Source of the DNA: Candidatus Adlerbacteria bacterium
Lineage (GTDB): Bacteria > Patescibacteriota > Minisyncoccia > Phycocordibacterales > SBAW01
Length of the DNA stretch: 64,000 nt
Direction of reading: 5' to 3'
Assembly: GCA_963749085.1 (NCBI GenBank)
Contig: CAVVLG010000002.1
Span: 229,033-293,032, forward strand
The notes below the pieces were generated by a model, which did no database searches, was not told where the DNA came from, and worked only from the letters and a program-made list of their open reading frames with translations. Position 1 is the first letter of the stretch; each line of letters begins with the position of its first letter. Position numbers and translations under genes: made by a program. Below are positions 1 through 61,961 of this stretch, piece by piece.

Positions 1-306
1 GTGATCATCGTCCTCTCTCTCGTGCAGCTCGGGGTGTGGTATCTGTTCCAATTGTGGCTTATGAAGTTTTACAAGGAAAAGGACCTATGGGACTGGCTCC
101 TGAGAGCCACCTTGGTTCCTGAATTTTTATACAGCTACCTCATGACCCTGGCACTTCTCGGCGCCTATCTCTTTTTCTGTTTTAACGTCCTTACCCGTAC
201 CCTGGGTATGAAGAGTAGATCATCCGGCAGGCGACTGCTGAAGATTGGTACCCTAGCGTTTCGCGCCTGTGGCTATACCGAGGGTTGGGGCACCCGCGCA
301 CAGTAA
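1..306 (+). CDS. 3' part of a membrane protein gene that starts upstream of the window
   Basis: The ORF runs in from the window edge. The translation is hydrophobic with TM-like segments and has no recognisable catalytic motif. Confidence 0.3.
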   Translation: MIIVLSLVQLGVWYLFQLWLMKFYKEKDLWDWLLRATLVPEFLYSYLMTLALLGAYLFFCFNVLTRTLGMKSRSSGRRLLKIGTLAFRACGYTEGWGTRAQ

Positions 307-310
307 TGCT

Positions 311-517
311 ATGTTCAACGGCACCACAGCACTCGGAACTTCAATACTCCCTTTGGGAATGTTTGCGGGCTTCTTGCTCTTGCATTCAGGAAATTTTTGG
401 ATGGCAGTCTGTTTTTTAGTGCTCACCGGCATCTCTTTTTTCATCACCATGACTACCCTGTGCCGCTACTTCATCAACTATCGACGCAATAGGGATGCAG
501 TAACGAAGCGGGTATAG
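311..517 (+). CDS. small membrane protein (68 aa)
   Basis: ATG at 311. Two hydrophobic helices. No homology recognised. Confidence 0.25.
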   Translation: MFNGTTALGTSILPLGMFAGFLLLHSGNFWMAVCFLVLTGISFFITMTTLCRYFINYRRNRDAVTKRV

Positions 518-543
518 CGTGCAGTGGAACCCCAAGTCTTTGG

Positions 544-756
544 TTAGTCTTTGAGCATGCGCCACACAAAAAAGGAGACCATCGACACGATGAAGCTCAG
601 CGCACCGAAAGTATCCTCGCGAGGCCAGGGAGCAAAGTGCGTGAGTGGCAGCGAGAGGGTCCACATATGAAACTCCGAGTTCAAGACGATGTAGAACCAC
701 CCGGCAAAACCGAACACACATAACGTCAGCGCAAGGTTTTGTATACACTTCTTCAT
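544..756 (-). CDS. small membrane protein (70 aa)
   Basis: Hydrophobic 70-aa ORF. It sits just downstream of the GH5 gene on the same strand. Confidence 0.25.
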   Translation of the reverse strand: MKKCIQNLALTLCVFGFAGWFYIVLNSEFHMWTLSLPLTHFAPWPREDTFGALSFIVSMVSFFVWRMLKD

Positions 757-759
757 GAG

Positions 760-2130
760 CTACTGCAGTGTACTACGTGACGCGATGGCCTGCATCAGCG
801 CTTGATACGCGGGCTTCTGCGAGCCGTCGTAGCGCAGAATGCCGAAGAAGTTTTCGTTGGTGCTCATACTCGTACCCAAATCTTGATAGCTGTAAATAAA
901 AATCGGGCCCGCCCAGGCATACCCGCCCGCCAGAGTGATCGCGGCGGCTATCATTTGAGCTTGCAGAGCCTCGGTGACATGGTCGGGACTCCCCATAAAG
1001 AACGTGTCGCTCGTGCTACTCTCGAGCGCTCCGGGACCCCCGGTGGGCGCCCCGTACTCGGTCATCCATATCTGTTTGTTGCCGTCGCCGTTCGCGATCA
1101 TAACGCTACGCAAACTGGGGTTCGTTTGAGCCATCTGCTGCCATGCGTTCCACTGTGCCGGATAGCCGGGCATCGCGGGATACGAGTACGGATGAAAACC
1201 GACTGCATCGAAGTTGCCCCCTGCCCCATCGGCATAGAGCGCCCCAAGAAAATCAATGGGCGCAATATTGCGACCGTCAGTGGCTTCCGGAGCAAGTCCG
1301 CCGGTGATAACTATCGCGGAAGGATCAGCATTTTTTATCGCCGGATAGGCAGCCTTAAGTAGTTGGGTGTACGCTTGCGCATTTGCCGCCGGCTCCCAAA
1401 AACCAGCATTATTGGGTTCGTTCCATATCTCCCACGTATGGAGACCTTGTGGGGCGAAGTGGTCAACCACTGCCGTTGCAAACTGTGCAAATTGCGAGTC
1501 TTCAGCCGGAGGGCATCTCATTGAAGTGCACCCGCTGATCGCGGCCCACATCGGGGCATACCCCAGAAGACCAAGGATTTGTATGTGCCGCGCATTCGCT
1601 GCCGCAACTATCCGATCATAATTGCCCCAATAATAATGGGCGCTATTGCGTGGTTGTATCGTGCTCCAGTCAAAATCTATTCGTATCCCACCAACCCCGA
1701 GCGAGGCAATGGTATCTAACTCCGCAGTAAGCTCTGCGTTATCAAGCCCAAGAAGCGTACTGCCGAGAGCAAATCCGTAGTCGTCACTCACCGTACTCTC
1801 CGTGCTCGTAGGAGCCAGTACTTGGGAGGGCGCTGCGGCTGGGATCTGCGCAAGTGCAGCCGGAGGCACTACGGCTGGGGTCTGTGCAGGTGAGGGCGCT
1901 GGGGCCGAGATCTGCTGCGGCGCAGCGGGGGGCGCTGCCGGGATCTGCTGCACAGCAGAGGATATAACCGCAGGAGGCGTGTAGGTTTCGGCTGGCTGCA
2001 TGGCATCGGGGGGGTTGGCGTGGGCTGCGGCGACTGCCAGTCCTATAACCAGTAATGCTATGAACACAAAGCCGAGCGTAAGTCTATAGCGCTCCTTGTT
2101 CCCACGCCGTGAAGCACTTTGCATGAACAT
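760..2130 (-). CDS. membrane-anchored glycoside hydrolase, GH5 (cellulase-like) family
   Basis: N-terminal TM anchor (LTLGFVFIALLVIGLAVAAA), then a Pro/Ala-rich linker (PAAPPAAPQQISAPAPSPAQTPAVVPPAA), then a catalytic domain with the GH5 acid/base signature WEIWNEPN and the segment DFDWSTIQP. Start taken at MFMQSASRR (2130) rather than the longest ORF. Confidence 0.7.
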   Translation of the reverse strand: MFMQSASRRGNKERYRLTLGFVFIALLVIGLAVAAAHANPPDAMQPAETYTPPAVISSAVQQIPAAPPAAPQQISAPAPSPAQTPAVVPPAALAQIPAAAPSQVLAPTSTESTVSDDYGFALGSTLLGLDNAELTAELDTIASLGVGGIRIDFDWSTIQPRNSAHYYWGNYDRIVAAANARHIQILGLLGYAPMWAAISGCTSMRCPPAEDSQFAQFATAVVDHFAPQGLHTWEIWNEPNNAGFWEPAANAQAYTQLLKAAYPAIKNADPSAIVITGGLAPEATDGRNIAPIDFLGALYADGAGGNFDAVGFHPYSYPAMPGYPAQWNAWQQMAQTNPSLRSVMIANGDGNKQIWMTEYGAPTGGPGALESSTSDTFFMGSPDHVTEALQAQMIAAAITLAGGYAWAGPIFIYSYQDLGTSMSTNENFFGILRYDGSQKPAYQALMQAIASRSTLQ

Positions 2131-2184
2131 GTGAATGCCAGTATAGTTCCACCGTCTAGAATTTGGAAGGGACGGCCTACCATA

Positions 2185-4338
2185 ATGCTTACGCGCGTCA
2201 TACAACATCTGCACCGGGACACCCTTTTGCGCAATTCGATCTATTTGATGCTTGCCACAGCGACCATGGCCGGTTTTGGCTTCTTTTTTTGGCTCATCAA
2301 TGCGCGACTTTTTTCGATCGAAAATGTCGGTTTAGCCACGACGCTCATTTCGGTCATGACGTTAATAGCCACGCTGAGTCTCATCGGATTTAATGCTGCG
2401 TTCGTTCGTTTTCTGCCGAAATCCTCCACCAAGAACGAGCACATGAACACGGGCCTCCTGATGGTAAGCATTGCATCAATCGTATTGGCAGTAGTGTTTA
2501 TTGCCTTCGTCAGGTTTATCTCGCCGCAACTGAGCGTTGTAGAGGAGAATCCGTGGTATGCGCTTATCTTCGTCGTTGCCTGCGTCATGACCGCACTGAA
2601 TATTCTGACTGACTCTATTTTCTTGGCGAACAAGCAGGCGAAGTTCACCCTTATCATCGACGCCCTGTTCAGCCTCTTTAAGATGCTCGCCCCGTTCGCG
2701 TTCATTGGCTTCGGGGCTATAGGTATTTTTACCGCGGCGGCGCTGGCGCAAACACTCGGTACCATCCTCAGCATCGCGGCGATGATCAAGTGGTTTCAGT
2801 ACCGGCCGAAGTTTGTCATCACGCCGGGTGTACTGCAGGGCATCTGGCGCTATTGCGCCGCCAATTACCTCGCCGGGGTGTTTAATCTCTTGCCGGTCAC
2901 GCTGCTCCCGATCATTATCATCAACCATCTGGGGGCCGCATCGGCCGCCTATTATTACATTGCCATGATGATAGCCACCCTGCTCTATGAGATACCGTAC
3001 GCAACCACCAAGTCCCTCTTTGCCGAGGGTTCCCACAACGAGGCATCGCTTAGTGCGAATGCCAAAAAATCGATTCAGATGATCGCACTGCTCTTAATAC
3101 CCGCCACACTGATTCTCTTTGTAGGCAGCGGGGAGCTCTTGCGTATCTTCGGGAGCGCCTACGAGGGCGGCGGTAGCACCTTTTTGCGTCTGCTGGTGGT
3201 GGCGGGCGTCGCCGTGAGCGCCTACTCGCTTACTAACGCTCTCTTCCAGGTCAAAAAGGATTCCCGAGCCATCATTATCGTCAATGTCTGCTACGCCCTT
3301 TCCATCCTCGCCCTCAGCTATCTCCTGCTGCCCTGGGGGTTAACCGGCATCGGCATTGCCTGGATAAGCGGGAATCTTTTCGCCGCCCTCGTCGGCTATG
3401 CACTTGATCGTTGGCAACCGTATGTGGTGGAAGCCGTCGATGCCACAACCCACAATAGGCTCGCTATGCTGCGCTTTAAGCTTCGCTATATGCTGGCGTT
3501 GGTGAGAAACGGCTTCAAACGCAACACCATCCTGTTCTATCCAGATAGCCCCCAGGTGTGGCATATCCTCTATCGGATGTGCCACTCTCTCGGATACCGG
3601 ATATCCAACGATCCGGAGTCCCCCTTTGACCTCGCGATAGCCTTCTGCGACACGACCACAAGGAAAAATGATGCGACGCTACAGCATCTGTCCTTGAAGC
3701 ATACGGTCGTAAACCTTCGCTGCGCTGATATCAGCAAGGAGCATGTTGAAGAAGTATTTACCGAAGTCTTTGGGTATGGGATGTCCATTGACCCACGCAC
3801 GTACCCCGGTCCCTATGTCAAAAAGTCAAATCTCAATAGCACGCATGACGGCACCATTCTACAGGGTCGCTCAGAGCCCAAGGAGGGGTATATCTACCAA
3901 AAGCTCGTCAACAACAGCGCGGGTGACGGCACGTTTAAAGACATCAGGGTCCACATATTTAAGGATCAGATACCGTTTGTGCTTTATCGGTATAAAAGCG
4001 CCACTGACCGCTTTGACGACAATCTTAGAGCCGAATGGGTCGACACCGACAAAGCGCTCAGCCAGGAGGAGCAAAGACAGATCATCCGTTTTTGCCACAC
4101 GTTCGGGCTTGACTACGGCGAGCTCGACGTCCTGCGCGATGCGGATGACGGCAAACTCTATATTGTCGATGCCAACAATACCCCGACCGGCCCGCGCCCG
4201 GGAGTACAGGTAAGCAAAGCGTTCTACCGAGTTTTTTTACACACTCTCTCTCAAACCTTTGCCTCTGAATTCATGGAAGAAAAGCGCCTAGTTATTCAGC
4301 GCAGCGTGGCACACGGCGCTGATACGTCCGGCAACTGA
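2185..4338 (+). CDS. fusion protein: Wzx-like polysaccharide flippase (MOP superfamily, about 12 TMS) with a C-terminal ATP-grasp ligase domain
   Basis: N-terminal about 420 aa are polytopic and typical of O-antigen/polysaccharide flippases. C-terminal about 280 aa carry an ATP-grasp signature (IRVHIFKDQIPFVLYRYKS ... GLDYGELDVLRDADDGKLYIVDANNTPTGP). Start at MLTRVIQHL (2185), divergent from the GH5 gene. Confidence 0.6.
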   Translation: MLTRVIQHLHRDTLLRNSIYLMLATATMAGFGFFFWLINARLFSIENVGLATTLISVMTLIATLSLIGFNAAFVRFLPKSSTKNEHMNTGLLMVSIASIVLAVVFIAFVRFISPQLSVVEENPWYALIFVVACVMTALNILTDSIFLANKQAKFTLIIDALFSLFKMLAPFAFIGFGAIGIFTAAALAQTLGTILSIAAMIKWFQYRPKFVITPGVLQGIWRYCAANYLAGVFNLLPVTLLPIIIINHLGAASAAYYYIAMMIATLLYEIPYATTKSLFAEGSHNEASLSANAKKSIQMIALLLIPATLILFVGSGELLRIFGSAYEGGGSTFLRLLVVAGVAVSAYSLTNALFQVKKDSRAIIIVNVCYALSILALSYLLLPWGLTGIGIAWISGNLFAALVGYALDRWQPYVVEAVDATTHNRLAMLRFKLRYMLALVRNGFKRNTILFYPDSPQVWHILYRMCHSLGYRISNDPESPFDLAIAFCDTTTRKNDATLQHLSLKHTVVNLRCADISKEHVEEVFTEVFGYGMSIDPRTYPGPYVKKSNLNSTHDGTILQGRSEPKEGYIYQKLVNNSAGDGTFKDIRVHIFKDQIPFVLYRYKSATDRFDDNLRAEWVDTDKALSQEEQRQIIRFCHTFGLDYGELDVLRDADDGKLYIVDANNTPTGPRPGVQVSKAFYRVFLHTLSQTFASEFMEEKRLVIQRSVAHGADTSGN

Positions 4339-5454: not shown

Positions 5455-7818
5455 TTATCGGTACACGAGCGCACTTCCGTTGTCGTAAATCCGATTTTTA
5501 TTGTCATCAAGAAAGGCCAGCGGGTAGGTATACGAGATATTGTCTCCCTCATAAAAGAGGGACACCGCGTGATTTCGAACGTCAGAAAAACCCAAATAGA
5601 CATACGAGTCTAGTTGGACCACCCCGGGGTAGATATCGTTACTAAGGTTTGCGTCTGCAAAGGTGGAGAGATTCCGGGTCGAATAATAGTCACCCTGGAT
5701 CAGTATCTTGGAAGTGGAGAGCGTGTCTTTTTGTATCTCAGCCGCAAGCCAATCACTACTCGCCACATCAGTGGCATGGATGTAATAGAGCTGATAATAA
5801 TCGCCGGAATTATTGAGATGCAATTGGGCCCCGTATCCTCCCAGCAGTTGGGTAAAGACCCCGGTCGATGAGAGCAGGAACAGTACGGCAAGGATACCCG
5901 CCAATGTTATTCTCGTATCATTTGAAAGACCCACGAATACATACAGACTTCCGACGACGATAAAGATACTCAGAAACATGAGCGATTGCTGAAACGCCCG
6001 GAGCAATCCGTACTCGGTCGAGAGCACCGGCAAGACAAGTTGGGCAAACACAAATACGATGCTGCCGATTGATAAGATAACGTAGTCACTCGCAAGGGGT
6101 TTCCGAAGAAATCGACTGCTCAGGAGGAGTGCGGCAAAGCCAATGATGACCAGCAGTTGCAGTAACCTGGCTGATCCTTGCCGAACCGCAGTATTGAATG
6201 CCACTACATTGATACCCACCTGCTCCATACCGCGGCCAAGCGCGGTTAAGGGCATCACCGGATCGGCTATGACTTCAATGGGATAGTGCTCGTAGGTTGA
6301 TGCGGGATAATAGACCCCGGTAGGAGCGATCGCACGAAACGGTGCAATCACTAATTGGAGATACTGCGCAAAGAGCTGATCGGCATTTGAGGTATGCAAG
6401 GACAGCAAACTGTAACTGGTATCGCTTGATTGGGTGTCTTGTTTGACATTGCTTTTCATGACCGCAATCGTCTCATCAAACACTCGATACAAACTACCGG
6501 ATGCCGTATTGGTCAACGTACTGCTCCATACAAACGTGGCGAGGAGGAGGAGGGCGACCATCCACAGCACGATGCGCTTCTCATCCCTATAGAGTGAGGG
6601 CCGCAGCGCTGCCATCCCTGAGGAGGAAAAAAACTGTAATCGTGAACTGTATTTTTTTGAGAACCAGTGCACGAGAGGCTCGGTCAGTACTAACAGTATA
6701 AGGAGTCCCAGTACGATGTAGGTCGTACTGTAATGAGACAAAATCATACCTAACCCGAGACCGACAAACAGCAGCTGCCTCAACCGAAGCGGAATATCCG
6801 TTTCAAAAATGACATAGATCATAAGGATTAAAAAGAGAAAGGCGATCTCTTGCCTATTAATGAACGGCATATCGCCAAAAAAAGTTGGGAATCCGATGAA
6901 ATAGAGCACAGAAATAAACGCAAGGGTACTGGAGACGTATCGCCTCACCGTCAAATACAGCATACCCGGCAGGGTTGAAAACAGTAACTGGAAGAGCACT
7001 TTAAACACATAGGGATCAAACAAACTGAGCACATTACTAAAGATAGTGGGCAAAATGGTGATACTCAGGCATGCGTTATAGGCATTGCGATAATTGGCGA
7101 TAGACCAGATACCACTCGATGTGGTCAGTTGAAAGACGCTGTATTCTTGCTGAATATCATGACCGGTCGCATACCAGCCACGAAGCGAGGTCATGAGGAG
7201 GAGTGCCAATGACACAAAGAAAAGCGCTATAGGAATGACATTGGGACCGAGTCTCTCGCCCTGCCACACAAGCCACAGGCAATACACTCCTATGCCCATA
7301 AGCATAATGAGTGTCAGAACCCCGCTTGCTCCGTTGTTAAGCCGAATGGCACCGAAGATTGCCATGAGGACAAACGCGATGGGTGCCAAGGCAGTCAGGG
7401 CATCGCGGACACTCCCAAACACCCCGTAGCTCCTAAGCGAGATATGTACCTCTTCCTTAAACTCCCAGATAAACGCTATAAGGGCATTCACCAAAAAAGC
7501 AAACTCCACCAGAAGAGTGGGTCGATCAAGCGGTCGCACTATTCCCAATTGGGGGAGGAGCGTATTGCCTGCTAAGGCTACCAGCATGAGCTCAAGCACA
7601 CTGAAACCTATGGTCAAACCGACGTAGGCCCACAAAGGCAGTCCATTGAGCTCCAAGAGAATGATCGTTAATATTCCGGGGAGACCTATAAGAGTGATAA
7701 ACCCGACAATGTTTAGGACTTGAAATCCGTTGTATTGCGAGGCACTAAGGAATAAAAAAACACCTTCCCACAGCAAGGTATAGATGAGCAGTCTGTTTCG
7801 ATTGAGAGAGAGTCTCAT
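5455..7818 (-). CDS. large polytopic membrane protein (787 aa); possibly a GT-C-type glycosyltransferase or polymerase
   Basis: About 15 predicted TM helices over the N-terminal about 560 aa, then a soluble Tyr/Asn-rich C-terminal domain. Embedded in the glycosyltransferase operon with an ATGA overlap to the upstream GT4. No catalytic motif could be verified. Confidence 0.45.
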   Translation of the reverse strand: MRLSLNRNRLLIYTLLWEGVFLFLSASQYNGFQVLNIVGFITLIGLPGILTIILLELNGLPLWAYVGLTIGFSVLELMLVALAGNTLLPQLGIVRPLDRPTLLVEFAFLVNALIAFIWEFKEEVHISLRSYGVFGSVRDALTALAPIAFVLMAIFGAIRLNNGASGVLTLIMLMGIGVYCLWLVWQGERLGPNVIPIALFFVSLALLLMTSLRGWYATGHDIQQEYSVFQLTTSSGIWSIANYRNAYNACLSITILPTIFSNVLSLFDPYVFKVLFQLLFSTLPGMLYLTVRRYVSSTLAFISVLYFIGFPTFFGDMPFINRQEIAFLFLILMIYVIFETDIPLRLRQLLFVGLGLGMILSHYSTTYIVLGLLILLVLTEPLVHWFSKKYSSRLQFFSSSGMAALRPSLYRDEKRIVLWMVALLLLATFVWSSTLTNTASGSLYRVFDETIAVMKSNVKQDTQSSDTSYSLLSLHTSNADQLFAQYLQLVIAPFRAIAPTGVYYPASTYEHYPIEVIADPVMPLTALGRGMEQVGINVVAFNTAVRQGSARLLQLLVIIGFAALLLSSRFLRKPLASDYVILSIGSIVFVFAQLVLPVLSTEYGLLRAFQQSLMFLSIFIVVGSLYVFVGLSNDTRITLAGILAVLFLLSSTGVFTQLLGGYGAQLHLNNSGDYYQLYYIHATDVASSDWLAAEIQKDTLSTSKILIQGDYYSTRNLSTFADANLSNDIYPGVVQLDSYVYLGFSDVRNHAVSLFYEGDNISYTYPLAFLDDNKNRIYDNGSALVYR

Positions 7819-8930
7819 ACCACCTCCCTATAGACGTCTTCGAGTCTATCTATGACCGTGGGCCAGGAGTACTGCCGAGCTTTGTCCACACTTTTTTTAG
7901 AGAGTTCCTGTGCGAGGGAGTTACTTCGTGCCACTGCTTCTATGGCAGAGGCCAGATTGACCGGGGACGGGTCGGCCACGATACCGACCTCCTCGATAAG
8001 CTCGCGGATACCCGCTACGTTGGAGCCAATGACGGGCAACCCGGCCGCCATGGCCTCAAGCAGCACGAGCGGCATACCCTCAATGTCAGAGGGCAAGACA
8101 AACATATCGGCGCTGCGATAGTACTCGAGCAATGCGTCTCCATACTTTTTTCCCACGAACACAATATTTTTCAATCCCAGCTCTTTCGTGAGGCGCTGAA
8201 GCGCAGCGGCCTCTTCCCCATCGCCGACCAATGCAACCTCAACCGGCACGTTAAGCAGCGCCACGGCCTTGATAAGCCTATCGACACGCTTTTGTACGGA
8301 AAAACGACCAACGTATAAAATGCGCGACGGACTATTGAATGCGATTTTGGGCTCACGGGTAAAAAACTGGCTCCTGACCCCATTGGGAATAATGGCGATG
8401 TTGGACGTCGGTACGCGGTATTTTTTTTCAACGAGGAGTGACTGCTCGTCGGAGAATACAATCACTCGTGAGGCACCTCTGAGCAGTGGCCCCCAGAGGA
8501 TCTTTTTATACACCAGGAACAAAGGGCCAAAAAAACCGGAGGGTCCGACGTCAAGATGGAAGTGAACGATATAGGGAATGCTCCGAAGCCGTGACGTCAG
8601 CAGTACCATCTCTGGGTAGTACGCCTGGGAGAGATGCAGGTGCATGAGCGAGCGTGTAGGGAGTGTGAGTAAATGCCACGGCAGGGTCGGGGTCAGCGGG
8701 GTATGCGCAAATTCAACACTGCCCAGTGTTTTTACGGTAAGATGCTCTTGATGACTGCGGTCGCTGCCGACGCCACCTGACGTCAACACCAAGACCGGGT
8801 GACCACGTTTGGCAAGGTAGTGTGAAGTGGTGTGTACCACTTCTTCGAGCCCCCCCATATGAGGCGGGTAATAGGCGCTGACCTGGACGATGAGCGGTTC
8901 ATTGCTCATAGGCGCTGTCACGGAGCACAT
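7815..8930 (-). CDS. glycosyltransferase family 4
   Basis: GT4 motif EGMPLVLLEAMAAGLPVIGSNVAGIRELIE. Its stop forms an ATGA overlap with the downstream membrane-protein gene. The true start may be at MSNEPLIV (8909). Confidence 0.8.
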   Translation of the reverse strand: MCSVTAPMSNEPLIVQVSAYYPPHMGGLEEVVHTTSHYLAKRGHPVLVLTSGGVGSDRSHQEHLTVKTLGSVEFAHTPLTPTLPWHLLTLPTRSLMHLHLSQAYYPEMVLLTSRLRSIPYIVHFHLDVGPSGFFGPLFLVYKKILWGPLLRGASRVIVFSDEQSLLVEKKYRVPTSNIAIIPNGVRSQFFTREPKIAFNSPSRILYVGRFSVQKRVDRLIKAVALLNVPVEVALVGDGEEAAALQRLTKELGLKNIVFVGKKYGDALLEYYRSADMFVLPSDIEGMPLVLLEAMAAGLPVIGSNVAGIRELIEEVGIVADPSPVNLASAIEAVARSNSLAQELSKKSVDKARQYSWPTVIDRLEDVYREVV

Positions 8931-34718: not shown

Positions 34719-34978
34719 AGACACCAGTATGCAAGGTTCTGAGGAAAAACAAAAGACCGTGCCGCTATGTAAAAGCTTTTTTGTCAACTCGACCAAAAAG
34801 GCTCCCGCAGAAGGCTTTTTTGGGGTGGAAATAAAACCCCATGTTAAGCCAAAAATCAAGTTCTCCGAGCCTTATTCCTAGTCCTTTTTGAGCGATGCCG
34901 TTGCCATTTTCAAAAAAAGTTTTCGTACCACTTATGCACAGTCAAGAAAAGTACCGCACCGTGGCGCCGGGGAGTATA

Positions 34979-37966
34979 ATGAAATTTCCGAGCGATATGG
35001 CGATCACCCAAAAAATAAAGAAGCGGAACGGGGAGATTGTCGATTTTTTTCCTGAGAAAATAACCATAGCTGTGCAAAAAGCGTTCGCGGCGGTGTTGGG
35101 CGACGCACACGAGCCTGATGCAGCTGACATCACACGCGTTGTCGCCGAAGCGATCGATGTGAAATTCGGCACCACGGCGTTCATGCCGTCGGTCGAAGAG
35201 ATCCAGGATTTGGTCGAAACCGCGCTCATGGAGCGGGGCTATTTTACCGTCGCGAAATCCTACATCATCTACCGCTACGAGCACGAGAAAATACGTGAGG
35301 AGAAAAAGCAAGAGGTCGCTGAAAAAATCGCTGAATCAAGCCTTTTTATCGTCAAACGCGACGGCTCCCGCGAGCGCTTCAGCGAAGTGAAACTCACCCG
35401 CACCTTTCTGCGTGCGGCGGAGGGGCTCGAGCGCTTTATAGACGTGCCCTCAATCATTGGGCGAGTGCGCCAGGAACTCTACGAAGGTATAAAATCAACC
35501 GATATACACGAAGTGCTTATCATGGTCGTGAGATCGATGATCGAGCGGGATCCCGCTCACTCCACCATCGCCGCGCGGCTGCTGCTTCAGTCGATGTACA
35601 CGCAGGTATTCGGCCAATTCGATTATGCGCGCGTGGAAGATGCGCACCGCGCCGCATTCATTGAGACCATTGAGCGCGGCGTCGATATCGGGCAGTTCGA
35701 TCCGGAACTTCTCACATTCGATGTACCGGCGCTTGCCGAGGTGCTTCAGATAGAGCGCGACCGTGAATTCAAGTATCTGGGACTACAGACCCTCCAGAGC
35801 AACTATCTCTCCAAGGAGCACGGCACGAAAAAGCTCCTCGAGACCCCGCAGATATTCTGGATGCGCGCCGCCATGGGCATGGCGCTCGCGGAGAAAACGT
35901 CGGAAGAAAGACAGCGCTACGCCGTAGAGTTCTACGAGGTCATGTCCTCCATGTACTACACGCCCTCCTCCCCGACGCTCTACCACTCCGGCCTCATGAA
36001 ACCTCAGCTTTCATCCTGTTTCCTCTCGACCGTGCCGGATGATCTTCATGCCATCTTTGCGGAATTTGGCGACGGGGCGCAGTTGCTCAAATATGCCGGG
36101 GGGCTCGGCACCGACTGGACGCCGGTGCGCGCCACAGGCTCTCTCATCAAAACGACCGGGGTTGAAAGCCAAGGCGTCATACCGTTTCTCAAAATCGCCA
36201 ACGACGTCACTATTTCCATTAACCGCTCGGGACGCCGCAGGGGTGCCCAGGCCGTGTATCTTGAATACTGGCATGCTGACATTGAAGATTTCATAGAACT
36301 CAGAAAGAACACGGGAGACGAGCGCAGGCGCGCCCACGACCTCAATACCGCCGTGTGGATCCCCGATCTCTTTATGAAACGCCTCGCCGAGGACGGCTAT
36401 TGGACCCTCTTCTCCCCTTCGGACGTCCCTGAGCTCCACGAGCTCTACGGCAAGAGGTTTGAGGAGATGTACCGTCACTACGAGAAGCTCGCGGACGCGG
36501 GACAAATACCCATGTTTAAGAAAATCCGCGCAGCGGAGCTCTGGAAAAAACACCTTACTATGCTCTTTGAGACCGGGCACCCCTGGGTCACGTGGAAAGA
36601 TCCCAGCAATATACGCTCGCCGCAAGACCACGTGGGTGTGGTGCATTCGAGCAATCTGTGCACGGAGATAACGCTCAATTCTTCAGCGACTGAAACCGCC
36701 GTGTGCAACTTGGGTTCTATAAACATGGCAAAGTTCGTCGAGAACGGCAAGTTCAATCGCGACACGGTAGCCCGCGTGGTACCGGTCGCCATGCGCATGC
36801 TCGACAATGTCATAGACATCAACTACTACCCAACTGAGAAAACCCGCAACTCCAACATGCGCCACCGCCCGGTGGGATTGGGACTCCGGGGCCTCCAAGA
36901 CGCGCTCTATAAAGCAGGACTTAATTTCCACTCGGAAGAAGCGGTGCGCTTTTCGGACGAGACTATGGAGACCATTGCCTACCACGCCATACTCTCCTCC
37001 GCACTCCTCGCTAAGGAGCGCGGATCCTACGAGACTTACAAAGGCAGCAAATGGAATCGCGGGATATTCCCACAGGACACGATAGCGCTTCTGGAGCAGG
37101 AGCGCGGGATGATCATAGACGTGCCGCGTCACGAGACACTCAATTGGCAGCTGGTGCGCGAATCGGTGAGGCAGTGGGGCATGCGCAATTCCAACTGCAT
37201 GGCCAACGCGCCGACCGCCTCGACCGCCAACATCGCCGGCTGCTATCCCACCATTGAACCCATTTACAAAAACCTCTATGTGAAGAGCAACATGGCGGGC
37301 GATTTTATGGTGGTCAACGAATTTTTGGTTGATGATCTCAAAAAATTGGGGCTCTGGAGCGAGGAGATGCTGGAGAAAATTAAATACCATGACGGCTCGG
37401 TGCAACAGATATACGAAATCCCGCCTGCCATTCGAGAAAAGTACAAGGAGGTCTTTGAGATAGATGCTCAGTGGCTCGTCAAAGCAGCGGCCTATCGCGG
37501 CCGCTGGATAGACCAGAGTCAGTCGCTCAACATATTCTACGGCGGCACCTCTGGCAAAGCGCTTTCGGAAATCTATCAATACGCCTGGAGCTTGGGGCTT
37601 AAAACCACCTACTATCTGCGCACCATGGGGGCGTCCCGCATCGAGAAATCGACCGTCAATATGGGCAAATTTGGCAGCACCTCCAAGCAAGACGAGGGGG
37701 TAGGCGCCATGGTCACACCCTCAAGCGTCCTTATCGAAGAGACCGTCATGGTCGCTTCAGTTTCCTCACCCTTAAGCGACGTTGTACTCTCCGCTATGGA
37801 GGTGGCCCCCCGCGAGACCCTTCCGGTAATGCCGATACAACTGCACGAGCAAACCGCGTACGAAGCACCGAGGACTGAAGTGTCAGACAGTATGTCTTCC
37901 TTTGAACTTCCCAAGAACCCTAAAATCGAGATAATCGGCGAAGCGTGCGAATCCTGCTCCGCTTAG
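34979..37966 (+). CDS. nrdA: ribonucleoside-diphosphate reductase large (alpha) subunit, class I-like, with two N-terminal ATP-cone domains
   Basis: ATP cones ITQKIKKRNGEIVDFFPEKITIAVQKAF and FIVKRDGSRERFSEVKLTRTF. Catalytic SNLCTEI. NAPTASTANI. Tyr-Tyr dyad in GLKTTYYLRTM (class I radical-transfer YY). C-terminal redox Cys pair GEACESCSA. GGAG RBS before MKFPSDM. Confidence 0.8.
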   Translation: MKFPSDMAITQKIKKRNGEIVDFFPEKITIAVQKAFAAVLGDAHEPDAADITRVVAEAIDVKFGTTAFMPSVEEIQDLVETALMERGYFTVAKSYIIYRYEHEKIREEKKQEVAEKIAESSLFIVKRDGSRERFSEVKLTRTFLRAAEGLERFIDVPSIIGRVRQELYEGIKSTDIHEVLIMVVRSMIERDPAHSTIAARLLLQSMYTQVFGQFDYARVEDAHRAAFIETIERGVDIGQFDPELLTFDVPALAEVLQIERDREFKYLGLQTLQSNYLSKEHGTKKLLETPQIFWMRAAMGMALAEKTSEERQRYAVEFYEVMSSMYYTPSSPTLYHSGLMKPQLSSCFLSTVPDDLHAIFAEFGDGAQLLKYAGGLGTDWTPVRATGSLIKTTGVESQGVIPFLKIANDVTISINRSGRRRGAQAVYLEYWHADIEDFIELRKNTGDERRRAHDLNTAVWIPDLFMKRLAEDGYWTLFSPSDVPELHELYGKRFEEMYRHYEKLADAGQIPMFKKIRAAELWKKHLTMLFETGHPWVTWKDPSNIRSPQDHVGVVHSSNLCTEITLNSSATETAVCNLGSINMAKFVENGKFNRDTVARVVPVAMRMLDNVIDINYYPTEKTRNSNMRHRPVGLGLRGLQDALYKAGLNFHSEEAVRFSDETMETIAYHAILSSALLAKERGSYETYKGSKWNRGIFPQDTIALLEQERGMIIDVPRHETLNWQLVRESVRQWGMRNSNCMANAPTASTANIAGCYPTIEPIYKNLYVKSNMAGDFMVVNEFLVDDLKKLGLWSEEMLEKIKYHDGSVQQIYEIPPAIREKYKEVFEIDAQWLVKAAAYRGRWIDQSQSLNIFYGGTSGKALSEIYQYAWSLGLKTTYYLRTMGASRIEKSTVNMGKFGSTSKQDEGVGAMVTPSSVLIEETVMVASVSSPLSDVVLSAMEVAPRETLPVMPIQLHEQTAYEAPRTEVSDSMSSFELPKNPKIEIIGEACESCSA

Positions 37967-38011
37967 ATTTATAGGTTCGAGTCCTACCCGCGGAGCAGAT
38001 GATTTTTGTGG
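37954..38011 (+). terminator. hairpin with a 9-bp stem and a 27-nt loop containing a tRNA T-loop-like motif (GGTTCGAGTCC), followed by a T-run; probable nrdA terminator
   Basis: CTGCTCCGC (37954-37962, inside the nrdA stop region) pairs with GCGGAGCAG (37990-37998), followed by ATGATTTTTGTGG. The loop carries GGTTCGAGTCC at 37974-37984. Confidence 0.4.
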
Positions 38012-38144
38012 AACTGACCCATCCCCGTCCTGAAAATCCCAAGTACCACAATGGGATTTTAGGAGCGTATTTCGCTATGAGTTCGAGAGAAAGTCTAGGC
38101 TACGATTTTAAGCCACAAAATCGGTTCGAGTCCCGCCCCTGTCT

Positions 38145-51508: not shown

Positions 51509-52078
51509 ATGTCTAAGAGCAAGACTATCTACGTATTCATTGACGCATCAAATCTGTGGGCAGCGCAGAAGGCAAAAGGTAAGGTCTTTGATTATGCCAA
51601 ACTGGCCAACTACATAAAGGAGAAGTTCTCCGCCAGCACTTTCCAGATATTTTATTACACCGCATACCCGGCTGAGGGGACACGGGCATATAGCCTGGAT
51701 GGGAGGCACAAATTTTTTACTTTCCTCAAAAAAGGTCTCGGGTTCATTGTAAGAAAGAAGGAACTGAAACGGATTTCCATACTTGATGAAGATGGTGAAT
51801 CCATTCAAGAGAAAGGAAACATGGACGTAGAGATGACGATTGATGCTCTCCATCACCTGTCAAAATACGATGTCGCTGTCTTCTTCACAGGCGATTCTGA
51901 TTTCCTTGCCCTTGTCACTTATTTACGGGAAGGAGGCAAGCAGGTATTTATCTTCTCCTCTAAAAACAATGTGTCTCAAGAGCTACGGACGGGTGGCGAC
52001 GGCTATTTTGATGTTTTAACTTTGGAAGAGGATATTTGGGGACGGGATTTGAAGTACCGTTCTAAAGATAATAAATAA
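51509..52078 (+). CDS. NYN-domain (LabA-like PIN-fold) protein
   Basis: IYVFIDASNLW…DVEMTIDAL…FFTGDSDFLALV…GKQVFIFS matches the NYN/LabA acidic-residue pattern. Confidence 0.6.
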   Translation: MSKSKTIYVFIDASNLWAAQKAKGKVFDYAKLANYIKEKFSASTFQIFYYTAYPAEGTRAYSLDGRHKFFTFLKKGLGFIVRKKELKRISILDEDGESIQEKGNMDVEMTIDALHHLSKYDVAVFFTGDSDFLALVTYLREGGKQVFIFSSKNNVSQELRTGGDGYFDVLTLEEDIWGRDLKYRSKDNK

Positions 52079-53497: not shown

Positions 53498-55444
53498 TTA
53501 ACACAAAGTTAGGTTAGAACATCGTCCTACATGCGGAGCCAGCAGCAAACTTAATGCAATTCTAGGAAAATTTGAACGCGCTGCGCGGAGCGCAGCGTAT
53601 TGTTTTACGGGGGTTTCTTCAACTTTTTTATTTCGCAAAATCAGGTTCGAGCCGAAAATTTCTTGGAGGGAGGATTTTTTGGAGGGAAGGTCGCCGTTTT
53701 TTGCTATTTCATCAAGCATTTGTGCTTTGTTTATCCACTCGCGCATAGGTTCGAGCCACGGGTGTTGGCCTCTTTGAGACTTGGCTATAACCTCCTCCAG
53801 CGATCTGCACTCCGACATGAGCGCGGCTCGTCGTTTTAGATACTCCGGCCGCTCAACATCCTGATCTATAAACGTGGTTGTAAGGCGGTCGAGTTTACGG
53901 CTGATATCCGCAACCTTGTCCCGTAGACTGGAAACGAAGGCCGCCGCCGTGCGCGAAGTAGCTCTCTCGTCCTCGTCCGCAAGTTTGAATAGTCCTTGCG
54001 CCCAGTCCTCCGGCATTGTGTAGTGCGATAGTATCTCGGAGAGATCGGTAATGAGGACTTCTTCTCTGACGTAGAGTTGGGAACAACGAACCGAAAGATT
54101 TTTCTTCGTACAGCGATAATAGGTGTGGCCTTTCTGAACTTCGGCCGTGATCATGCAACCGCACTCACCACACCGGAGTAAGCCGCAAAGTATCTTCGGC
54201 TCTTTGTCTGGCTTCTGTGGATGTCCACGACGGACAAGGATCGTCTGCACTTTATCGAAAAGTTCTTTGTCTATGAGTGGGGTGTGCTTGCCCTCGTATG
54301 TCTCTCCGGCATAGCGAAAATGTCCGTAGTAAAAAGGATTGGAAAGAATAAACTTCGCTCGATCTTTTTGTAGCCGATTGCCGTAAATGCTCGTAACGCC
54401 GTTGTTGTATAGGAACTGTGAAATATCTTCAAGTCGAGAGTTGCCTTTGGCGTATAGCTCAAAGGCGGCTCTGATAAATCTAGCCTTCTTGCGATCAACG
54501 ACGATGGTTTTAGCCCGCACATCGTTTAAGTAGCCCGCCGGAGCCGTACCGGGGAAATGCCCGATGGCCGCCTTATGACGTAGCCCACGGCTCGTATTTG
54601 CGCTTAGGTCGCGTATAAACTGGTTAGCCATACCGAACTCTACGGACATCATAAGCACGTTGTCGTTCGAGACGTGGCTTCTATCATGCGTTTGGATATG
54701 CCGTATCGTCCCCTGCTGCAACAGCCAACTTATCTGTCCGCCGTCCACCGGATTGCGAGCAAGACGATCCAACTTCCAACAGATGATGCCCTGTGCCTCG
54801 CCCTGCTGTATCCGATTAAGCATTTCATTAAAGACAGGACGGCCGGGCATCTTAGCCGTTTTCTTCTCTACAAATTCTGCTGCGACGTTTAAACCTGCGC
54901 TTTTCGCGAGCGAACGAAGTTCTGCTAGTTGGCCTTCAATCGAGAGGACTTGCTTGTCCTCGACATCAGTGGATTTGCGGGCATAGAGGAAGTAGTGGGA
55001 CATAGGTACTGAAGCCATGACTTCATATAGAAGACGACTTTTGAGAGCGAGCGTAAGACAAACTCGGAATTGTGAAATCATCAGGGCGTGGGCGATGAGC
55101 GGCGAGGTATGCTTCAATTCCTGCACGCGGCGCAAAATTCCTTGCCGCTCCTGCGCGTCCTTTGCCAACACCTCAACGCCCTTTCGGTCGAGAGAATAGA
55201 CGACGTGGGCGGACGCTAGGTTTGCCGCTTTTTGAACCTTCGGCCGATCAAGGTAGCCATGCTGGAAAAGAAGGCTGAGGCGGTTCCCGATGCCTCGGTC
55301 GCTCCCTTCGTGTAGAGACACAAGTTGCTCCGTATTCAAAAAGCGGTACTCGGCCACATCGGAGAGGATTGCGGTGTCGCGGGGCTGTAATCTGAGGGGG
55401 TCGGCTTCACCTCGAACGAACTTTTGACGACGTGGTTTAGGCAT
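53498..55444 (-). CDS. large serine recombinase (resolvase catalytic domain + recombinase domain + zinc ribbon + coiled coil) with a roughly 140-aa N-terminal extension
   Basis: Catalytic YARKSTDVEDKQVLSIEGQ (Ser nucleophile). ICWKLDRLARN. CGLLRCGECGCMITA zinc ribbon. C-terminal coiled coil. An in-frame alternative start (MASVPMSHY, 55018) would remove the N-terminal extension. Confidence 0.75.
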   Translation of the reverse strand: MPKPRRQKFVRGEADPLRLQPRDTAILSDVAEYRFLNTEQLVSLHEGSDRGIGNRLSLLFQHGYLDRPKVQKAANLASAHVVYSLDRKGVEVLAKDAQERQGILRRVQELKHTSPLIAHALMISQFRVCLTLALKSRLLYEVMASVPMSHYFLYARKSTDVEDKQVLSIEGQLAELRSLAKSAGLNVAAEFVEKKTAKMPGRPVFNEMLNRIQQGEAQGIICWKLDRLARNPVDGGQISWLLQQGTIRHIQTHDRSHVSNDNVLMMSVEFGMANQFIRDLSANTSRGLRHKAAIGHFPGTAPAGYLNDVRAKTIVVDRKKARFIRAAFELYAKGNSRLEDISQFLYNNGVTSIYGNRLQKDRAKFILSNPFYYGHFRYAGETYEGKHTPLIDKELFDKVQTILVRRGHPQKPDKEPKILCGLLRCGECGCMITAEVQKGHTYYRCTKKNLSVRCSQLYVREEVLITDLSEILSHYTMPEDWAQGLFKLADEDERATSRTAAAFVSSLRDKVADISRKLDRLTTTFIDQDVERPEYLKRRAALMSECRSLEEVIAKSQRGQHPWLEPMREWINKAQMLDEIAKNGDLPSKKSSLQEIFGSNLILRNKKVEETPVKQYAALRAARSNFPRIALSLLLAPHVGRCSNLTLC

Positions 55445-55709
55445 GGCAATTACCCTAGATTATACGACTTTCAGACCCCCTCAAACGAGGCCTTCCTCCT
55501 TCCCGTCCTATCCTTTTTCGCAGTTCACCCCCCACACACGAGCAAAAAAGAGACAGCAGGACGGAAGGAGAAGGCCGAGCCACCCAAACACGAACCCGCG
55601 ACATTTCACGAGGGAACGCCACGGGGGCGTTCCGGAGTGAAGTAGGGGTTGAGATTTTTTTGGGCAAGGATTGAAAAGCCCTGCGTTGAAGCCAATATCG
55701 AGAGGAGCT

Positions 55710-55756
55710 ACCCCTACATTCCGGCATAGGTCGAATGTAGGGGTGAATGTAGGGGT
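55710..55756. repeat. 12-bp motif present as one inverted copy plus two tandem direct copies (ACCCCTACATTC-11 nt-GAATGTAGGGGT GAATGTAGGGGT); candidate recombinase or regulator binding sites
   Basis: Read directly: 55710-55721 (inverted), 55733-55744 and 55745-55756 (direct). An additional partial copy AAGTAGGGGTT at about 55642-55652. Confidence 0.6.
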
Positions 55757-56115
55757 AAATCACGCCGGATTTCCCATAAAAAACGGTCGAGTTTCCGTGT
55801 AGAGATGAGCCCAGTTGGACAGGTAGCCACTTCGAGGACGGCATCAAAGGGCTTTCGCAGTGTAAACGCTAGCCTTTTCCCACTTACGGTCGGGTTCTGA
55901 AGTAGATAATTCAAAAACGCTCGTTTTTCGTGCGGTTCAGAACTGGCGAAGATTTGGCCCATCCGGCGGGATATAGAAAAGACCTGAGCGATAACGAGTT
56001 TGTAGTCGTGATCCGCTCTCATGTGCTCTTCGGCTTCGATATTAAGCTGGTACTGCTTGTCTTTCGTCTCTTGCAGTTTTTTGTCATAGTCGCCCTTAGT
56101 AATACCCCGATCCAA
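55714..56115 (-). pseudogene. C-terminal fragment of a second large serine recombinase gene (no catalytic domain)
   Basis: EKRAFLNYLLQNPTVSGKRLAFTLRKPFD parallels the C-terminal segment SSLQEIFGSNLILRNKKVEETPVKQY of the intact recombinase and of this family generally. It lacks the resolvase and zinc-ribbon regions. Confidence 0.4.
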
Positions 56116-56777: not shown

Positions 56778-57068
56778 TCATGCCCTCTCCGCGGGCGAGA
56801 GGCCACCCAATGCCTTGTGCGGAAAGTAGTTCCACGCATCCGTAAGCGCCTCGACGATGGTGCCGAGTTCAATCGCGCCCTGTCCGGTGTCGAACATGGC
56901 GATGAGCGCAGTAAAGTCGTCGCTTTCCTCTTCCTCGTAGATAGCCACCTTGATGTGTTCCAGACTGAAGTCGCTGCCGGTGTTGCGCAGATGCTCTTCA
57001 AGCTCCTGCTCGATCTCGTGGCGCTTTGCCAGTATCTGCTCCTTCGTTTTGCGCTTCATGTGCCGCAT
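56778..57068 (-). CDS. hypothetical protein (96 aa)
   Basis: Start taken at MRHMKRK. Followed on the same strand by a 62-aa ORF (56574..56762). Confidence 0.3.
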   Translation of the reverse strand: MRHMKRKTKEQILAKRHEIEQELEEHLRNTGSDFSLEHIKVAIYEEEESDDFTALIAMFDTGQGAIELGTIVEALTDAWNYFPHKALGGLSPAERA

Positions 57069-57206
57069 TATACACGGCACAATCGGATACGAGCAGATCA
57101 TGTTTTTCTTTTGAGAACACGCTGCTCTGCGACCTTGATATACGCATAAAAAAGAAGTACCGTCTACTTTGGAAGCGCCGTTTTACCCTCTTGAGGGAGG
57201 AGAACA

Positions 57207-59545: not shown

Positions 59546-60169
59546 CGCCAGCATAAGGAGAAAGCTATGGCGTCGAACACACACACCTCAACCGAAGTGA
59601 ACAACTGGTTGCTCAGGATCGTCACGCCTCTTGGCTATGCCATAGGCGTCGGAGGCCCCGTTATCGTCATCATCCTCGCTGTCCTCGGCAAACTGCCGTC
59701 CTGACCTTATACGTGCGGGGTCAAAATCAAGAGCAACGACAGTGCCGACTTCTTAGTCGCTCAGACAGGAGGATGGGTACGTCGCTGAGGACGTAGCTCC
59801 TCTTTACTGATTGATGCCGTCTTAGCATATTGCTGGGACGGCTTTTTTCTTTCCTTATCTCTCCACCAATCTCGGTATCGTTACCGTGAGCCACTGCATT
59901 TCCTGCTCAATCTCTCTCCAATCTACCAATCTGAACTTGTCCTTGTAGCGGAGCAGACTGGGAGAAAAAGAAATGACCCTCGTGCTGCAATAAGCGGCTG
60001 TTTTACGAGGGTCAAGGGTTTTTAGAAAAAAATAAAATGTTCATCCTCCCTCTCCTTGAGGCGGAAAGAAACAACGTGGCGAATCCGATCCCATAGGATA
60101 GACGAACATGACGCCCTCTTTGGTGGGTGTTGGTTCCCCCCAATGGATTATGTCCTCTGGCACTCTTTC

Positions 60170-60968: not shown

Positions 60969-61961
60969 ATGGGAATCATCAACGGTGGGAGCAATACAGA
61001 CCCAAACAAGATCCTGCCGATGAAATATCCGTGGGCACGCACGCACTATAAAAAAGGGGTGGCCAACAACTGGGTGCCCGAGGAGGTCTCCATGCAGCAG
61101 GACGTGGAGCTCTGGAAAAAGCAAGGAGGCCTCAGCGAGGATGAGCGCCGTATGATTCTCTGGAATCTCGGTTTTTTCTCGACCGCCGAGTCCCTGACCG
61201 CCAACAACATCGTGCTCGCCATCTACCGCCATATCACCAACCCCGAGTCGAGGCAGTATCTTCTGCGCCAGGCGTATGAGGAGGCGGTACACACCGACAC
61301 CTTCATCTACTGCTGCGATACCTTGGGCCTCAACCCGGATGATATCTATAACATGTACCAAACCATTCCCTCGATAAAGGAGAAAGATGATTTCGTGGTC
61401 GATATGACCAAGTCAGTGTTTGATCCGAATTTCTCCACTGTGGGCACCGAAAACATACAGAAGTTCGTGCACGACCTCGTCGGCTACTACGTCATCATGG
61501 AGGGTATTTTCTTTTATGCCGGTTTCGTCATGATGCTCTCCATGCTGCGCAAGAACCGCATGGTGGGTGTGGGGGAAATGTTCCAGTTCATCTTGCGCGA
61601 CGAGTCGGTGCATCTCGCCTTCGGCGCCGATCTGACCAATACCATCGTGGCGGAGAATCCGGAGATCTGGACGCCCGAATTCAAGAAAACACTAGAAAAA
61701 AATATTCTGCGCGGGGTGGAGCTGGAGAAAAAATATGCCGATGACGCGCTGCCGCGCGGCATCGTGGGGCTCGCTCCCGCTTCAGTCAAGCAGTACATCG
61801 AGCACATCGCCGACCGGAGGCTCGAGCGCATAGGGCTGGAGCGGCAATACCACAAGGACAACCCCTTCCCCTGGATGTCTGAGATCATGGATATGCCGAA
61901 GGAGAAAAATTTCTTCGAGACGAGGGTGACGGAATATAAAACAGGAGAGCTGGATTGGTAA
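60969..61961 (+). CDS. nrdB: ribonucleoside-diphosphate reductase small (beta) subunit, class I
   Basis: GAGGAG RBS. Di-iron ligand motifs EEAVH and RDESVH (E-x-x-H twice). KYPWA…NNWVPEEV N-terminal pattern. 330 aa. Confidence 0.8.
   Translation: MGIINGGSNTDPNKILPMKYPWARTHYKKGVANNWVPEEVSMQQDVELWKKQGGLSEDERRMILWNLGFFSTAESLTANNIVLAIYRHITNPESRQYLLRQAYEEAVHTDTFIYCCDTLGLNPDDIYNMYQTIPSIKEKDDFVVDMTKSVFDPNFSTVGTENIQKFVHDLVGYYVIMEGIFFYAGFVMMLSMLRKNRMVGVGEMFQFILRDESVHLAFGADLTNTIVAENPEIWTPEFKKTLEKNILRGVELEKKYADDALPRGIVGLAPASVKQYIEHIADRRLERIGLERQYHKDNPFPWMSEIMDMPKEKNFFETRVTEYKTGELDW

Follow-up and report, generated by a model that had tools for sequence, protein, structure and literature searches.

The region analysed here lies in a 64-kb stretch of contig CAVVLG010000002.1, hereafter the window, and contains a 648-codon open reading frame (ORF) with recombinase domains, a cluster of three 12-bp repeats upstream of it, a 133-codon ORF that overlaps these repeats, and several sequences resembling the 3' end of tRNA-Asn genes. 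Because the homologues carry the taxon names Parcubacteria, Paceibacterota, Kaiserbacteria and Minisyncoccia, and the exact 648-residue protein stems from a contig of 518 kb, the window is taken to be chromosomal DNA of a bacterium of the Patescibacteria (candidate phyla radiation, CPR). The region is situated between nrdA (34895-37966) and nrdB (60969-61961), which are 23 kb apart in the window and which in two related loci (L028 and L083) are adjacent both to each other and to a tRNA-Asn gene with a recombinase gene of the LSR-B type; LSR-A and LSR-B are our names for two families of large serine recombinases, and L and P numbers denote related loci and homologous proteins, respectively. The two nrd genes probably enclose a tandem array of integrative mobilizable elements (IMEs) in a state of decay. 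A first-pass annotation of the window had already suspected the boundary of an integrated element here, and the organization of the region bears out a boundary between such elements.

The 648-codon ORF was originally described as a recombinase gene with an N-terminal extension, and its domain content agrees with this. Pfam recognizes Replic_Relax (PF13814) at amino acids 27-133, followed by Resolvase (PF00239, amino acids 152-295, E 3.2e-19), which holds the nucleophile serine motif YARKST, Recombinase (PF07508, 319-404) and Zn_ribbon_recom (PF13408, 419-464). A catalytic domain with subsequent Recombinase and zinc beta-ribbon domains is the arrangement of a large serine recombinase; this part of the protein, LSR-A, also matches the PHROG 95 integrase (E 5.6e-70) and aligns with its homologues in the motif YFLYARKSTDVED, while weak NCBIfam matches to CcrA/B/C and XisF remain far below the cut-offs (101 bits vs 900). 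LSR-A has 7067 homologues, the best of which are 76-79% identical, 495-540 amino acids long and start at the equivalent of M148. None of the best 120 recombinase homologues has the N-terminal extension; most are of 465-575 amino acids (one of 694 and one of 876). Their alignments span 58-79% of the query overall, 68-79% in 118 of them and 76% in most. Since the homologues begin with M(S/H/P)QYFLYARKST, the native start of LSR-A is M148 and not M143, and the supposed extension of 142 residues has to be redrawn; DNA homology to the LSR-A family likewise begins at the ATG at 55003.

The residues in front of this start derive from another gene, as the first-pass annotation had considered when it spoke of a fused helix-turn-helix (HTH) domain. 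The PF13814 match covers profile positions 1-111 of 191 (E 3.6e-10), and an exhaustive search with amino acids 1-150 retrieved 766 relatives. The best 150 of these are 89-416 amino acids long, the full-length ones measuring about 290 amino acids (about 288 would be expected for the intact relaxase); they align to query residues 1-137, with few weak matches beyond, mostly via their own N-terminal 140 or so residues, and none is long enough to include a recombinase. Identity of the remnant with P0175-P0177 amounts to 61-70%. In full-length relatives the PD...FLEADR motif of the PD-(D/E)XK core is found at residues 168-187 or thereabouts (in P0176) and thus past the point at amino acids 136-137 where homology ends, so that the remnant lacks the nuclease core required for nicking. 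Nor does the C-terminal half of the relaxase occur elsewhere in the window, as tblastn with four full-length relatives matched 55444-55040 alone. PF13814 is a family of PD-(D/E)XK fold that is usually fused to an HTH domain (PMC3424549), it corresponds to the MobC relaxase family (PMC5357655), and among the relaxases of Patescibacteria those of the MOBC class are the most common (PMC12102498). The PF13814 match, the unfused homologues on both sides and the truncation ahead of the PD...E.D motif together identify the extension as the HTH-containing front half of a relaxase gene joined in frame to a complete LSR-A gene, and the fusion as most likely an accident of internal deletion.

The 133-codon ORF (55714-56115, minus strand) had been interpreted as a second recombinase copy truncated to its extreme C-terminus. 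It is indeed a true relic, which matches residues 394-496 of the 507-residue intact LSR-B of L001 with 63% identity (tblastn, E 1.8e-36), its first three or so and last 31 or so codons being read-through of non-recombinase DNA. However, it is not a copy of its neighbour (E 0.18 against the LSR-A C-terminus) and belongs to a different family, LSR-A and LSR-B sharing about 27% identity. The fragment has 54 short homologues, one of them with a Zn_ribbon_recom domain, and finds no match itself in Pfam, NCBIfam or PHROG. In blastn, DNA homology to some 70 LSR-B loci is confined to 55807-56105 and stops at 55807.

What lies at such ends becomes apparent from the related loci. In most of them the LSR-B gene and a convergent tRNA-Asn gene (occasionally tRNA-His, -Leu or -Gln) overlap at their 3' ends, the 3' ends of LSR-A homologues overlap tRNA 3' ends in the same way, and genes that are not followed by a tRNA end in a tRNA-like tail of the form TGGCTC-N8-10-GA.G.GTTC.GAAC. 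Comparison of junctions reveals a GCTC core common to attL, attR and attP-type sites. The real attachment (att) sites of these elements thus appear to be sequences that resemble the tRNA-Asn 3' end, contain a GCTC core and overlap the recombinase gene at its 3' end. The window contains four sites of this kind, all in one orientation (T1, T2, T3 and S in Table 1), while a tRNA scan of its 64 kb found no tRNA and an Rfam scan no RNA family. T1 has the form of the attL sites that lie 4.5-8 kb upstream of LSR-B in six loci (L011, L020, L029, L060, L074 and L082, with attL at 133-3446) and matches L027, L004 and L011 in blastn (E 6e-6 to 1e-3). The P' arm of T2 is shared with L094, L097 and L148, where it is found between the LSR-A gene and the 12-mers, and where T3 stands in the window, a genuine tRNA gene (tRNA-Asn or tRNA-Gln) is present in the LSR-A homologue loci L085 and L086. 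The S remnant may possibly be the far boundary of the array, which we regard as uncertain. A second piece resembling a tRNA 3' end is present at 38121-38139, 125 bp beyond it.

The relaxase part can be placed in a similar context. Scanning the relaxase alignment against metagenomes yielded 80 loci, in almost all of which the relaxase gene is full-length. In L094, L133 and L148 LSR-A is located 355-410 bp upstream of the relaxase gene and the P' arm and 12-mer architecture of the window are present as well, and in L105 a Walker-A (P-loop NTPase) protein is encoded downstream of the relaxase, which we read as a VirD4-like putative coupling protein. Compared with its intact relatives in L094, L148 and L105, the element in the window has an intact integrase, a truncated relaxase, a putative origin of transfer (oriT) suggested by the covarying repeats and att-like sites on both sides (55807-10 and 53536-39), but these are hybrid or attP-type.

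We propose the following order of events for the array. Elements would integrate into the 3' end of tRNA-Asn by means of a large serine recombinase, the attP being a tRNA-like sequence with a GCTC core at the end of the recombinase gene. An LSR-B-type element would have entered first, with its attL at 59.95 kb, its recombinase later being cut to codons 398-496. An element carrying a MOBC relaxase gene and LSR-A would then have integrated at the att junction that ends the LSR-B gene, thereby giving rise to the hybrid site at 55807-10 and bringing in the P' arm, the triple 12-mer, a promoter, the relaxase gene and LSR-A. In a third step, an internal deletion that began at relaxase codon 137 and reached the start codon of LSR-A would have created the in-frame 648-codon ORF and left this element with its P' arm, the 12-mers, the promoter and relaxase(1-136)::LSR-A. 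As the LSR-A 3' end still carries an attP-type tail and no tRNA, a further element or rearrangement would follow beyond it. The LSR-B element would accordingly extend from 59975 to 55807, the relaxase/LSR-A element from 55806 to 53498, and further material from 53497 downwards. Tandem accretion at attR is documented for IMEs (PMC5704250), and the window shows an attL (T1) and internal sites in one orientation together with a 28-nt tRNA 3' remnant and no intact tRNA. Several points weigh against this scheme. A relaxase-type element with LSR-B was not seen among the related loci, so that the hybrid origin of the 55807-10 site is presumed; T1 is weakly detected by the tail profile (E 1.8), although its pairwise matches and the alignment of the attL family are convincing; the flank of the 37969-96 piece is trailer-like and not a recombinase arm; and there is neither a complete tRNA-Asn nor a third recombinase in the 64 kb, which leaves the array without a canonical attR end. 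For the same reason the first-pass proposal that the recombinase delivered the cargo at 40-53 kb is unproven, since no recombinase or complete tRNA closes that segment.

Table 1. Features of the locus (positions in the window; names as used in the text)
Feature	Position	Strand	Description and evidence
S, copy of the tRNA-Asn 3' end	37969..37996	+	28 nt (T-arm and acceptor) with trailer-like flank, 3 nt after the nrdA stop; GCTC core 37993-37996; nhmmer tRNA-Asn profile positions 46-73, E 1.1e-4
T3, attP-type tRNA-like tail	53498..53545	-	At the LSR-A 3' end, no tRNA joined; GCTC core 53536-53539; reads TGGCTCCGCATGTAGGACGATGTTCTAACC; nhmmer LSR-tail profile E 1.2e-5
648-aa ORF	53498..55444	-	Relaxase remnant, linker and LSR-A
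LSR-A	53498..55003	-	Complete large serine recombinase, native start M148, 501 aa; Pfam Resolvase, Recombinase and Zn_ribbon_recom; homologues
Linker	55004..55039	-	36 nt, in frame, unique, at the deletion junction; Replic_Relax homology ends at 55040, LSR-A homology starts at 55003
Relaxase remnant	55040..55444	-	N-terminal 135-136 or so codons (HTH part) of a Replic_Relax/MOBC gene, nuclease core missing; PF13814, homologues
Relaxase upstream region	55445..55709	-	Conserved; TATAAT 55459-55464; block ACTTCACTCCG...GTGAA at about 55605-55645; aligned with L087 and 40+ metagenome loci
Triple 12-mer	55710..55756	-	DR1 55756-55745, DR2 55744-55733, 11-nt spacer, inverted copy 55721-55710; probable relaxase-binding/oriT element
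T2, hybrid att site	55757..55810	-	GCTC core 55807-55810, then P' arm of relaxase-type elements (ATCTCTAC...CG.TTTTTTATGG...GTGATTT)
LSR-B relic	55807..56105	-	Codons 398-496, starting ATTACTAAGG; tblastn, blastn
T1, attL-type site	59860..59975	-	Outer end of the LSR-B-type element; terminator-like tRNA-trailer flank, TGCTCC, N7, GGACAAGTTCAGA...; core 59951-59954

But is the LSR-B relic merely what was left of a decaying gene? About 30 of 83 loci keep only LSR-B codons 398-506, and they always start with ATTACTAAGGA, their 5' edge being the same to the nucleotide. The flanks upstream of this edge are unrelated between loci and end in a G-rich, GGNGA-like pentamer, and intact LSR-B genes retain the sequence AGAGT/ATTACTAAGGA (the slash marks the edge). 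With the 3' ends of intact genes elsewhere the fragments share 92-96% identity, from which many independent and recent events follow, and where a fragment adjoins a tRNA, ordinary chromosomal-looking genes abut it. Synonymous-codon identity among LSR-B genes is 59.7% after the break site (72.7% in the first 12 codons) as compared to 44-46% before it. Moreover, an otherwise full LSR-B gene in L030 (about 7990-8015) contains an 11-bp tandem duplication, ATTACTAAGGA-ATTACTAAGGA, and in L071 (244-1088) codons 172-397 are lost, the right edge of the deletion being at the same AGAGT/ATTACTAAGGA site. All of this would suit a 100-codon piece maintained as a small gene or DNA module, be it as a landing pad, as a regulatory or directionality factor, or as an in-gene site for nicking or recombination that causes precise one-sided deletions. 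On the other hand, a start codon is not conserved and the peptides encoded upstream are unrelated to one another, and we therefore regard a maintained module as no more than possible. Equally tentative is our best guess as to the mechanism, namely that LSR-B genes contain a second, DNA-level site, AGAGT/ATTACTAAGGA, at codon 398 in the coiled-coil tip, which repeatedly triggers precise one-sided loss of upstream DNA; such a site might act as a nick or transfer origin inside the gene, or as a pseudo-att that drives a self-inactivating deletion. If so, a 300-bp recombinase tail would be left beside an att site or tRNA in many Patescibacteria genomes, and on the pseudo-att reading the self-inactivating deletion would domesticate the island.

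Two other ways of generating the fragment were considered and rejected. In integrases of the SSV1 type, attP lies in the int gene, which is split on integration; the overlap of att with coding sequence and the C-terminal piece at the junction are the same here, but only the last ten or so codons are exchanged at the true att, and a reciprocal N-terminal part was sought and not found, either in the window or among the best 120 database matches to LSR-B residues 1-397, all of which are full length (499-575 amino acids). Excision between attL and an internal site does not apply either, because the left flanks of the fragments lack the TGCTCC of attL. The nucleotide-precise, recurrent truncation may reveal a new mode of island immobilisation.

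The repeats upstream of the fusion ORF had been noticed as an inverted repeat with an extra tandem copy, and this description is accurate. The window contains exactly three copies of GAATGTAGGGGT (one on the minus strand, 55710-21, and two on the plus strand, 55733-44 and 55745-56), the nearest of them 265 bp from the start of the ORF, as opposed to a chance expectation of 0.21; three copies occurred in none of 100 shuffles, and no further copy with up to one mismatch exists in the 64 kb. In a set of 42 loci with at least 330 nt of sequence upstream of the relaxase gene, the window among them, two tandem 12-mers followed by an 11-nt spacer and one inverted copy are present in 40, at 308-368 nt before the relaxase ATG (123 and 290 nt in two loci), and the layout is also found on contigs without a recombinase nearby. 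LSR-A and LSR-B elements that have no relaxase lack the motif, a single copy in L016 being the only one among 87 loci; in this locus GAATGTAGGGGT (6783-6794) stands directly at the 5' end of tRNA-Asn beside a full LSR-B gene, with 17 nt identical to the window (GCCGGAATGTAGGGGTA). The sequence of the 12-mer varies by locus and falls into classes that include ACCCCTACATTC, ACCCCTTCATTC, ACCCCATCATTC, ACCCCTTCAAAT, (A/G)(C/G)(C/G)TAGTCATTC and GGGGTCGTTA, the copies differing on average at 1.6-2.1 of 12 positions within a locus as compared to 5.4 of 12 between loci. To our knowledge, no earlier description exists of such a layout, in which a direct pair is followed after 11 bp by an inverted copy and the sequence falls into specificity classes.

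The second direct repeat (DR2) is able to pair with the inverted copy over its full 12 bp around a loop of 11 nt, and two-sided changes preserve pairing in 10 of the 12 pairs, which would be expected if the repeats acted as a nucleic-acid hairpin, for instance a single-strand origin, a nick-site hairpin in the transferred single-stranded DNA or an RNA element. Yet in an alignment of 35 sequences the first direct repeat (DR1), which would compete for pairing, covaries with the inverted copy equally well (89.0% standard pairs, score 0.452) as DR2 does (85.5%, score 0.450), no value as high being reached in 500 shuffles in either case, and in the TAGTCA class it is DR1 and not DR2 that agrees with the inverted copy in its outer bases. 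In addition, no intrinsic terminator is predicted on either strand of 55710-55756, where the 11-nt loop is not followed by a T-run, and the repeats match no Rfam family. We therefore think it unlikely that hairpin formation is what has been conserved, even though an oriT could combine a hairpin with protein binding. Because the inverted copy covaries to the same extent with both direct repeats, three copies of one protein recognition sequence would fit the data better than one particular hairpin. The fixed position next to the relaxase gene suggests that the triple 12-mer is probably a relaxase-binding or oriT element, its candidate binding protein most likely being the HTH domain of the relaxase, and the covarying 12-mer would then define specificity classes of a putative oriT for MOBC relaxases in CPR elements. 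It has to be conceded that any element-encoded protein would covary with the 12-mers in the same manner and that the link to the relaxase is drawn from sequence comparison.

In the conserved region between the 12-mers and the relaxase gene, a second "hairpin" at about 55605-55641 is palindromic in a minority of loci only and is not claimed. Dozens of independent metagenome contigs (L089, L096, L098, L099, L102, L107, L108, L114, L116, L147 and others) begin (contig positions 1-30) shortly before the conserved ACTTCACTCCGC block and about 200 nt ahead of the relaxase start. This could be due to assembly breaks where conserved sequence gives way to variable sequence, or to a structural or physical feature. 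The 664-bp contig L087 (1-664, with P0175) contains a relaxase gene truncated at the same codon as that of the window (about 137), followed by an inverted copy of part of itself that may be an assembly artefact or an inversion.

A protein in which the HTH domain of the relaxase recognizes the nearby 12-mers and so tethers LSR-A beside its own att site would be a functional new recombinase, comparable to the serine transposases of the IS607 type, in which a MerR-like HTH is natively fused in front of the serine catalytic domain of a protein of about 200 amino acids. The fusion ORF is in frame and free of stop codons, it is placed behind the conserved relaxase promoter with a near-leaderless start while the promoter of LSR-A itself is gone, and the remnant mini-element retains both att halves. 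However, the exact 648-residue protein forms a cluster of one member and neither the best 120 homologues of the recombinase nor the best 150 of the relaxase include a fusion, an in-frame join has a prior chance of about one in three, and the winged-HTH-like secondary structure of the N-terminal part comes from a predicted model of low confidence (predicted local distance difference test, pLDDT, 56.7), which is too low for a fold search. We accordingly consider it improbable that the fusion was selected for function and favour the deletion accident. The ORF does not belong to the IS607 type itself, as the NF033518 match reaches 24 bits where 110 are required and is limited to the catalytic domain, the N-terminal part being the Replic_Relax remnant of a unique fusion.

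The first-pass annotation had assigned the 12-bp repeats to the adjacent recombinase as crossover or accessory sites, that is, as one att end with the other copy at the far junction; their position about 50 bp from the att-like core at 55807-10 would permit an accessory or directionality role, but this is very improbable, as no second junction in the window carries the repeat, which is the refutation that the annotation itself had named, as the homology that defines the junctions breaks at GCTC cores and not at the repeats, and as the motif follows the relaxase gene, to which it keeps a fixed distance even where no recombinase is near, and not the relaxase-less elements.

The set of modules found here, a recombinase, a PF13814 relaxase and, in relatives, a putative coupling protein, is the same as in the IMEs of Streptococcus that encode a MobC (PF13814) relaxase and their own VirD4, and in IMEs with serine integrases (Coluzzi 2017, PMC5357655; Guedon 2017, PMC5704250). 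Integration beside a conserved gene, frequent tandem accretion and decayed elements at the att site are further similarities with the Streptococcus elements. Different from these, the host is a member of the Patescibacteria, attP lies within the last codons of the integrase gene, and the copy in the window has lost the catalytic half of the relaxase and all cargo; and whereas the serine-integrase IMEs of Firmicutes usually insert inside protein genes, the large serine recombinase here targets a tRNA 3' end. As in the arrays of cis-mobilizable and integrative and conjugative elements at tRNA genes (CIME-ICE; ICESt3, tRNA-Lys islands; PMC5704250), direct att-like sites are arrayed with decayed elements between them and a newcomer would integrate at an att site that carries a gene end, but the recombinases are serine and not tyrosine recombinases and the terminal tRNA is missing from the array in the window. 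Tn4451 and Tn5397 (TnpX/TndX) and the Ccr recombinases of SCCmec likewise employ a Resolvase, Recombinase and Zn-ribbon recombinase as the sole integration and excision enzyme of a mobilizable element; their target and att structure are different from the tRNA 3' end with GCTC core described here. MOBC relaxases such as MobC of CloDF13 and TraX of pAD1 have a restriction-endonuclease fold and act at an oriT with repeats beside the relaxase gene. The full-length relatives of the remnant have the same HTH plus PD-(D/E)XK architecture, with the repeat cluster a few hundred bp upstream, although for the 12-mers of the window oriT function is putative. The fold assignment of the MOBC relaxases has been published (PMC3424549).

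For the window itself our analysis is mostly a clean-up, in that the "extended" recombinase is most likely the product of a deletion that fused two genes of a now dead element, and its att site does not lie in the repeats. The locus as such is an ordinary decayed mobile-element junction; it is the comparison of families that defines att sites, candidate oriT classes and a recurrent precise truncation. At this level an anatomy emerges for the poorly described mobilome of the Patescibacteria, with two families of large serine recombinases that have attP in their last codons and tRNA-Asn as target, an element type with a MOBC relaxase and a conserved, covarying candidate oriT, and clear tandem accretion. 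The att and oriT-like sequences could serve to delimit CPR islands and to design DNA-transfer tests in uncultivated episymbionts.

With respect to the cargo, annotation of defence systems gave a weak NYN match and nothing else, and the ORFs neighbouring the LSR-B fragment have no matches in Pfam, NCBIfam or PHROG. The NYN gene (51509-52078) is part of the DNA that runs down from 53497. In L049 (9124-12812) two tRNA-Asn copies with equal profile scores flank a 3.5-kb segment whose NYN-domain gene shows 71% protein identity to that of the window, as if a small module of cargo turned up repeatedly at tRNA-Asn arrays. A homologue of the ORF at 56778-57101 (minus strand) with 54% identity is present in the LSR-B locus L026. 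Finally, several related loci contain tRNA-Asn(GTT) genes split between positions 34 and 35 by 230-640 bp (L020, 8301-8926, and also L024, L027, L042, L051, L052, L059, L065, L068, L071, L079 and L084). ARAGORN misses these split genes, and the insert of L020 matches the group I intron model RF00028 with 45.7 bits (E 2.4e-10), just below the gathering score.

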